Made by a program: the position numbers and the translations under genes. From the NCBI RefSeq assembly GCF_056746865.1, contig NZ_CM163382.1: DNA of 64,000 nt. One strand, written 5' to 3'. The notes under the pieces were generated by a model. That model made no database searches, was not told where the DNA came from, and saw nothing but the letters and a program-made list of their open reading frames with translations. Positions 46,162 to 47,739 of this stretch are shown one piece after another (within the stretch, counting starts at the first letter, position 1; every line of letters starts with the position of its first letter).

Positions 46162-46433
46162 AAAAATTAATAAATACCCTGTGGTTTAACATATTAACTT
46201 CGCTCTCCACTTAACTTTTTAGTTAAGGAGAGCGAAATAATATCAAAGTAGCAGTAAAACCTATAACGTAAATTCAAATTGTTAAATTAACTCCCTCCAG
46301 TACACAATACTTCACACGTTAGTTATGAGCGATTTCTGATAGTAGACTGGCCCCCTGAATCTCCAGACAACCAATATCACTTAAATAAGTGATAGTCTTA
46401 ATACTAGTTTTTAGACTAGTCATTGGAGAGCAG

Positions 46434-46799
46434 ATGATTGATGTCTTAGGACCGGAGAAACGCAGACGGCGTACTACACAGGAAAAGATCGCTATTGTTC
46501 AGCAGAGTTTTGAACCGGGAATGACGGTCTCCCTTGTTGCCCGGCAACACGGTGTGGCAGCCAGCCAGTTATTTCTCTGGCGCAAGCAATACCAGGAGGG
46601 AAGTCTTACTGCTGTGGCCGCAGGAGAGCAGGTCGTTCCTGCCTCTGAACTTGCTGCTGCCATGAAGCAGATTAAAGAACTCCAGCGCCTGCTCGGCAAA
46701 AAAACGATGGAAAATGAACTCCTTAAAGAAGCCGTTGAATACGGGCGTGCAAAAAAGTGGATAGCGCACGCGCCCTTATTGCCCGGGGATGGGGAGTAA
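46434..46799 (+). CDS. insC: IS2 OrfA (InsC), 121 aa
   Basis: Matches recalled InsC ([29 protein letters not shown]...). Confidence 0.9.
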
Positions 46800-47662
46800 G
46801 CTTAGTCAGCCGTTGTCTCCGGGTGTCGCGTGCGCAGTTGCACGTCATTCTCAGACGAACCGATGACTGGAAAGATGGTCGCCGCAGCCGTCACTCAGAT
46901 GATACGGATGTGCTTCTCCGTATACACCATGTTATCGGAGAGCTGCCCACGTATGGTTATCGTCGGGTATGGGCGCTGCTTCGCAGACAGGCCGAACTTG
47001 ATGGTATGCCTGCGATCAATGCCAAACGTGTTTACCGGATCATGCGCCAGAATGCGCTGTTGCTTGAGCGAAAAACCGCTGTACCGCCATCGAAACGGGC
47101 ACATACTGGCAAAGTGGCCGTGAAAGAAAGCAATCAACGATGGTGCTCTGACGGGTTCGAGTTCCGCTGTGATAACGGAGAAAAACTGCGAGTCACGTTC
47201 GCGCTGGACTGCTGTGACCGTGAGGCACTGCACTGGGCAGTCACTACGGGCGGCTTCGACAGTGAAACAGTACAGGACGTAATGCTGGGAGCGGTGGAAC
47301 GCCGCTTCGGCAACGAGCTTCCGGCGTCTCCAGTAGAGTGGCTGACGGATAATGGTTCATGCTACCGGGCTAATGAAACACGGCAGTTTGCCCGGATGTT
47401 GGGGCTTGAACCGAAGAACACGGCGGTGCGGAGTCCGGAGAGTAACGGCATAGCAGAGAGCTTCGTGAAAACGATAAAGCGTGACTACATCAGTATCATG
47501 CCTAAACCAGACGGGTTAACGGCAGCAAAGAACCTTGCAGAGGCGTTCGAGCATTATAACGAATGGCATCCGCATAGTGCACTGGGTTATCGCTCGCCAC
47601 GGGAATATCTACGGCAGCGGGCCAGTAATGGGTTAAGTGATAACAGGTGTCTGGAAATATAG
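46757..47662 (+). CDS. insD: IS2 OrfB (InsD) transposase catalytic domain, 301 aa; overlaps insC in the -1 frame
   Basis: DDE/rve-type integrase motifs; overlap arrangement consistent with programmed -1 frameshifting in IS3-family elements. Confidence 0.9.
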
Positions 47663-47739
47663 GGGCAAATCCAGATAGTGCCTGGTTTAATCAGGGCTTT
47701 ATTATCTGCGACGTTTATTTTTATTTAAGAGAGATCGCG

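Follow-up and report, generated by a model that had tools for sequence, protein, structure and literature searches.

The window, i. e. the whole 64-kb stretch of DNA that was analysed, carries an IS2-type insertion element between yahK and yahL. The element and the two genes all have the same orientation. The features of the locus are the following:

45112-46161, + strand: yahK, intact gene for an NADPH-dependent aldehyde reductase, ending 181 nt before the element (open reading frame; Pfam ADH_N and ADH_zinc_N; yahK in syntenic loci)
46199-46233, + strand: strong hairpin downstream of yahK, CGCTCTCC...GGAGAGCG, upstream of the insertion and unaffected by it
46338-46342, no strand: left-hand GATAG of the target-site duplication; the empty allele of strain 118UI has a single GATAG
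46343-47673, + strand: complete IS2 isoform of 1331 bp, 95.8% identical to K-12 IS2 and free of indels
46343-46384, + strand: left inverted repeat (IRL) of 42 bp, starting with TAGACT, which serves as -10 box in the promoter of the IS2 minicircle junction (PMC3219604)
46390-46398, + strand: TGATAGTCT, putatively corresponding to PIRL, the weak promoter of the extended -10 type that drives orfA/orfAB, within the segment marked in PMC3219604 as containing this promoter
46434-46799, + strand: orfA (insC), 121 aa, HTH protein, IS2 repressor (Pfam HTH_Tnp_1, 1.8e-19; NCBIfam 'IS2 repressor TnpA')
46751-46757, + strand: A6G slippery heptamer AAAAAAG for the -1 frameshift making the OrfAB transposase (motif described in PMC3219604)
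46757-47662, + strand: orfB (insD) frame, 301 aa, DDE integrase core (Pfam rve, rve_3, HTH_21; NCBIfam 'IS2 transposase TnpB')
47633-47673, + strand: right inverted repeat (IRR) of 41 bp with a CA-3' end, from the repeat comparison
47647-47649, + strand: GTG (not ATG) in the IRR, 31 codons ahead of the yahL ATG and in its frame, with no Shine-Dalgarno match above background
47652-47657, + strand: TGGAAA, putative outward-facing -35 of the IS2 junction promoter, deduced from published geometry
47674-47678, no strand: right-hand GATAG of the target-site duplication; together with the T that follows, it reads GATAGT, a -10-like hexamer (4/6) 16 nt after TGGAAA
47681-47695, + strand: weak native hairpin of 6 pairs (3 G-C) followed by a T-rich tail, between the element and yahL; the same feature is present in the empty allele
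47740-48555, + strand: yahL, 271 aa, intact, with its own ATG and Shine-Dalgarno motif; the 61 nt directly upstream of the ATG are native

On the upstream side, yahK and its downstream hairpin are untouched by the insertion. The 181-nt spacer between the yahK stop and the element (46162-46342) has a predicted fold of -35.7 kcal/mol (z = -4.3). The very stable hairpin at 46199-46233 lies within this spacer, 38 nt past the yahK stop, and has no T-run on either strand; it could be a transcript-stabilising or terminator-like element. A search of positions 44000-50000 against Rfam returned no RNA family.

The window was read and sliced by script, and the element was found to occupy exactly 1331 bp on the + strand (46343-47673). 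It starts with TAGACTGGCCCCCTGAATCTCC and ends with ...ATATAGGGGCAAATCCA. With the repeat lengths given for IS2 in PMC3299598 (IRL 42 bp, IRR 41 bp), the IRL (TAGACTGG...) and the IRR (...GCAAATCCA) match in 31 of 42 columns with one indel. The length of ~1.33 kb, the 5'-TA start of the IRL and the CA-3' end of the IRR (...AATCCA) are all those of IS2, and the right end is present in a single copy within the 64-kb window. Both sides of the element are bordered by identical 5-bp copies of GATAG (46338-46342 and 47674-47678), and two given positions would carry the same 5-mer by chance with a probability of 1/1024. GATAG occurs twice here and once in the empty allele of 118UI, i. e. as the 5-bp direct target-site duplication that is characteristic of IS2; the transposition of IS2 produces such a staggered duplication of 5 bp, in this insertion of GATAG. 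From the right end of the element to the yahL ATG at 47740 there are 66 nt, and from the end of the right GATAG 61 nt. An earlier note on this DNA had described a full-length IS2 of 1331 bp with both inverted repeats, flanked by identical GATAG repeats and located 66 bp upstream of the likely yahL start in the same orientation. All of this was confirmed, including the duplication on re-check.

The coding content of the element is also that of IS2. Neither orfA nor orfB has an internal stop, and they overlap at an intact AAAAAAG with orfB in -1 phase. Hence the two overlapping reading frames in phases 0 and -1 and the A6G motif that define IS2 are present, whereas the frameshift itself is predicted from the sequence. 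The DDE core and the N-terminal HTH were both detected (Pfam rve 8.5e-20, rve_3 1.7e-18, HTH_21, and HTH_Tnp_1 1.8e-19). OrfA scored 276.4 bits against NF006928 ('IS2 repressor TnpA'; curated cut-off 229) and OrfB 707.8 bits against NF006918 ('IS2 transposase TnpB'; curated cut-off 597).

According to the rule of ISfinder, elements with >90% DNA and/or >95% protein identity are isoforms. Compared with the IS2 of K-12 MG1655, the element of the window has 56 substitutions and no indels, which corresponds to 95.8% DNA identity; OrfA is 100% identical to its K-12 counterpart and OrfB differs at 10 of 301 residues (96.7% identity). These values reach isoform level, so that the element is, as judged by this comparison, an IS2 isoform and not the K-12 sequence. 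It shares with K-12 IS2 (IS3 family, IS2 group; insC/insD) the 1331 bp, the termini, the orfA/orfB layout, the A6G motif and the 5-bp duplication. Unlike in K-12 IS2, one of the 56 substitutions turns an ATG at IS position 1305, within the IRR, into GTG, and PGAP labels the variant in the window only as 'IS3 family transposase'. The isoform is common. A copy with at least 99% identity was found in 1,780 records, and plasmid NZ_CP102854.1 carries a copy that is 100% identical. The prerequisites for IS2 transposition (minicircle formation) that can be read from the sequence are all intact, and the isoform is undamaged and probably still active.

To what extent the insertion is specific to this genome can be seen from the comparison with uninterrupted alleles, which the earlier note had suggested as a check. 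Removal of the element together with one GATAG yields a sequence identical at 665 of 665 positions to the uninterrupted yahK-yahL allele of E.coli strain 118UI. The window is colinear with 118UI throughout, with the IS2 insertion as the sole structural difference over 64 kb; six true substitutions separate the two in the left 46 kb and none in the right 16.3 kb. The perfect match of the reconstructed empty site and the colinear flanks bear out the claim that no later rearrangement has taken place. In 3,999 of 5,426 complete E.coli genomes the yahK-yahL stretch is uninterrupted, and the genomes that are identical over the 10.35-kb left flank all run on into the empty site. An IS2 at the GATAG site was not found in any complete E.coli genome, and the exact 33-nt right junction had no match in GTDB representative genomes or metagenome contigs. 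Since the empty site matches that of 118UI and no complete E.coli genome has an IS2 here, we consider it highly probable that the insertion is real, very recent and private to this strain, and that it arose by simple transposition. In terms of mechanism, an intact IS2 isoform would have transposed into the AT-rich yahK-yahL spacer.

The earlier note had named misassembly of a multicopy IS as a finding that would speak against the insertion. IS2-type sequences are indeed multicopy in E.coli, with a median of 4 places per genome, and the junction is absent from every other assembly that was searched, as might be expected if an assembler had misplaced one of the copies. However, the 5-bp duplication is perfect and of a length typical of IS2, and the flanks rejoin to the known allele of 118UI at 100% identity, whereas misassembly normally breaks colinearity or leaves no duplication. 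Because a misjoin across IS copies would not yield a perfect duplication along with colinear flanks, an artefact appears so unlikely as to be almost negligible. Both the element and its behaviour are known, and the site is new but unremarkable; the significance of the insertion is small beyond strain typing. For this purpose it offers a clean private marker which separates the genome from the near-identical strain 118UI. It also shows that the IS2 isoform has recently been mobile in the lineage.

The gene downstream of the insertion, yahL, is 100% identical at the DNA level to yahL of 118UI. YahL has no family match in Pfam or NCBIfam. It is described only as a signature protein restricted to E.coli/Shigella (PMC11057252), and a literature search on yahL found no promoter or function data. 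In several complete E.coli genomes yahL is split by IS2 or has an internal stop, so that the gene is clearly dispensable. The yahL stretch has a G+C content of 39-41%. AT-rich DNA is typically silenced by H-NS.

Two kinds of consequences for yahL were considered, an altered protein and an altered expression. Regarding the protein, the earlier note had pointed to an ATG at 47647 in frame with yahL, from which a YahL with a 31-residue N-terminal extension could be made. The frame is as described: it runs from 47647 into yahL without a stop and adds 31 codons, giving 302 aa as compared with 271 aa. The codon, however, is GTG. It is K-12 IS2 that has an ATG at the equivalent element positions 1305-1307, and therefore the earlier ATG matches the reference IS2 and not the window. 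What speaks for an IS-borne start is that the extended frame arises through the insertion. Without the element, a TGA located three codons before the target site closes this frame, and no start codon follows between the TGA and the ATG; the extended reading frame was thus created by the insertion. It is also the case that a GTG behind a weak Shine-Dalgarno motif occasionally serves as start codon. Yet a frame that agrees with that of yahL (1/3) and stays open for 31 codons (~0.2) is chance expectation. The 20 nt upstream of the GTG pair with the anti-Shine-Dalgarno sequence at -3.1 kcal/mol, which is background level, being equalled by 39% of random positions in the window, whereas the native ATG of yahL is still there and keeps its better motif, AAGAGAG, at -5.4 kcal/mol. 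Furthermore, in the predicted RNA fold the GTG region forms a stem together with the IS tip and GATAG. As the GTG has no ribosome-binding site it is unlikely to be used as a start, and an N-terminal extension of YahL by 31 residues encoded from the element seems very unlikely, as does the production of extended YahL in meaningful amounts. Translation of YahL would instead still begin at the native ATG at 47740.

In the reference IS2, the ATG at element position 1305 opens a frame of 9 codons (MSGNIGANP) that ends exactly at the IS tip. Therefore flanking DNA can become an extension of this frame at any IS2 insertion. In the isoform of the window (47647-47673) the start codon of this outward 9-codon frame is GTG.

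Regarding expression, the abutted ends of the IS2 minicircle are a strong promoter, with the TA-initiated box at the IRL tip (TAGACT) as its -10 and an outward-reading motif in the IRR as its -35 (PMC3219604, PMC3299598), and this junction promoter reportedly depends strictly on a 17-nt spacer (PMC3299598). The promoter of the element itself is weak, and OrfA represses it (PMC3219604, PMC3299598). Hybrid promoters formed by IS2 with flanking DNA have been documented at ampC, acrEF and neo (PMC3219604, PMC9330008), and therefore an effect on yahL is possible as well. From the TAGACT -10 at the IRL tip, the 1-bp junction spacer and the mandatory 17-nt promoter spacer (PMC3219604, PMC3299598), the outward-facing -35 would be TGGAAA at 47652-47657. 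At the spacing of 17 nt from this hexamer the flank reads ATAGTG, which matches TATAAT at 0/6 positions. The only -10-like hexamer in the flank is GATAGT at a spacing of 16 nt, with 4/6 matches including A2 and T6. An outward -35 at 17-nt spacing to a -10, as in a hybrid promoter, was thus not found at the IS2-yahL junction. With a rough promoter matrix, which is based on the consensus frequencies of Hawley and McClure (1983) and is semi-quantitative only, TGGAAA-16-GATAGT scored 5.1 bits and ranked in the top 0.14% of the sites in the window, compared with 8.4 bits for the true junction promoter. A consensus promoter and terminator scan flagged nothing at the junction, where the hybrid site (8/12) remained below threshold. 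The same scan found no intrinsic terminator within IS2, and no promoter-like site in the yahK-yahL spacer.

The main consequence of the insertion would be regulatory, in that the right end of IS2 now takes the place of everything upstream of position -61 of yahL, which has moved off by 1.3 kb. Transcription of yahL could then have three sources: a core promoter retained in the last 61 nt, for which GTGCCT-16-TATTAT is the candidate; weak, OrfA-repressed read-through from the IS2 promoter, a possible source because no terminator was found inside the element; and a poor hybrid promoter, TGGAAA-16-GATAGT. The native hairpin with its T-rich tail at 47681-47695 could, as far as its predicted structure tells, act as a leaky terminator between the element and yahL.

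It is conceivable, although doubtful, that yahL is silenced or deregulated because the insertion cuts it off from a native promoter or an activator site located more than 61 nt upstream of the ATG. Of the 242 nucleotides of the spacer, 181 have been moved 1.3 kb away, with promoter-like candidates such as TTGTTA-18-CACAAT (6.9 bits) among them, and yahL, which is split by IS2 or stopped in several complete genomes, is dispensable. On the other hand, a candidate core promoter of equal quality (GTGCCT-16-TATTAT, 6.4 bits, 47678-47705) has been kept in full on the yahL side of the insertion, and no native promoter in the spacer was detected by the consensus scan. The opposite effect, an activation of yahL resembling that at ampC and acrEF, either by a new promoter made of TGGAAA and GATAGT or by constitutive read-through from IS2, is unlikely. 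The arrangement as such would permit it: the IRR has the outward -35 known from the hybrid promoters of ampC, acrEF and neo (PMC3219604, PMC9330008), yahL lies downstream of the IRR on the side which this -35 faces, the score of the hybrid site leaves room for some promoter activity, and the scan of the IS2 interior revealed no terminator. As in the documented cases (PMC9330008), the right end faces the gene, TGGAAA lies 16 nt from the tip and the flank is A/T-rich. However, the hybrid site has a spacing of 16 nt where 17 nt are reportedly required (PMC3299598), and hundreds of sites in the 64 kb score equally. At ampC, as the work of Jaurin and Normark (1983) is summarised in PMC9330008, the IS2 -35 stands at a 17-nt spacer to a proven -10, whereas the only -10-like hexamer of the window lies at 16 nt and matches at 4/6 positions. 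Read-through would have to start from the weak, OrfA-repressed promoter of IS2 (PMC3219604, PMC3299598) and pass the hairpin with its T-rich tail in front of yahL. That the right end of IS2 together with GATAGT forms a weak working promoter, or that the IS2 transcript runs on, and that yahL is switched on in this way, is quite unlikely.

Taken by itself, a change of yahL expression by at least 3-fold in either direction is possible, though we would lean against it. The sequence predicts neither a strong effect on yahL expression nor the direction of such an effect. If the expression of yahL were changed, the strain would be a natural perturbation of a function-orphan gene, and if yahL were switched on, a natural over-expresser of an orphan gene restricted to E.coli/Shigella; yet the sequence gives little reason to prioritise it.

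The region around yahL has received IS2 more than once. From the yahK stop to yahM (46162-48970) there are at least 12 independent sites of IS2 or its isoforms, in both orientations, in an AT-rich stretch of 1.19 kb across E.coli genomes. Besides the site of the window, eleven distinct sites were mapped in these 1.19 kb. Every one of them has a separate 5-bp duplication, and this confirms the footprint expected of IS2. In strain YPE10, an IS2 in the opposite orientation is located 12 bp from the site of the window and has a TGAGC duplication; in strains A134_1EC and EC06 an IS2 in the same orientation is located 99 bp upstream and has an AATAT duplication. These other insertions in the yahK-yahL-yahM region resemble that of the window in the element family and in the 5-bp footprint; they differ from it in that none uses the GATAG site and several interrupt yahL. 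IS2-type elements within ~2 kb were found in the + orientation in 18 genomes and in the - orientation in 11 genomes, which is no convincing orientation bias around yahL.

The possibility that yahL is a special hot spot for IS2 was rejected on the basis of mock-insertion controls. The AT-rich betT-pdeL spacer contained IS2 in 24 genomes and the GC-rich coding region of prpD in 0 genomes, and therefore the clustering is general to AT-rich, dispensable DNA and not specific to yahL. It looks like a reflection of such DNA, via target preference or tolerance. A related reading at the population level would make AT-rich spacers, for example yahK-yahM and betT-pdeL, regional hot targets of IS2. For phage P1, Sengstag and Arber reportedly described a regional target preference of IS2 in the 1980s.

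Some further features of the 64-kb window were observed. Two tandem arrays with REP-type palindromes are present, one in the prpB-prpC spacer (53161-53632; 93-bp units, 5.1 copies) and one in the prpE-codB spacer (58277-58993; 94-bp units, 7.6 copies). The units are 96% identical, and both arrays are identical to those in 118UI. From the type of repeat in E.coli we take them to be BIME-like. At ~13500-14800 a copy of IS5 interrupts an aldo/keto reductase gene. Strain 118UI has it at the same place, and the insertion is therefore older and shared by both. Of the six substitutions that separate the window from 118UI, three lie inside this IS5 (14105, 14168 and 14386), a pattern that suggests gene conversion among IS5 copies or assembly differences specific to the copy. 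On the - strand at 49230-49901, yahN, which encodes a LysE-family exporter, is split into open reading frames of 165 aa and 54 aa, and this split matches the 'internal stop' pseudogene annotated in 118UI.
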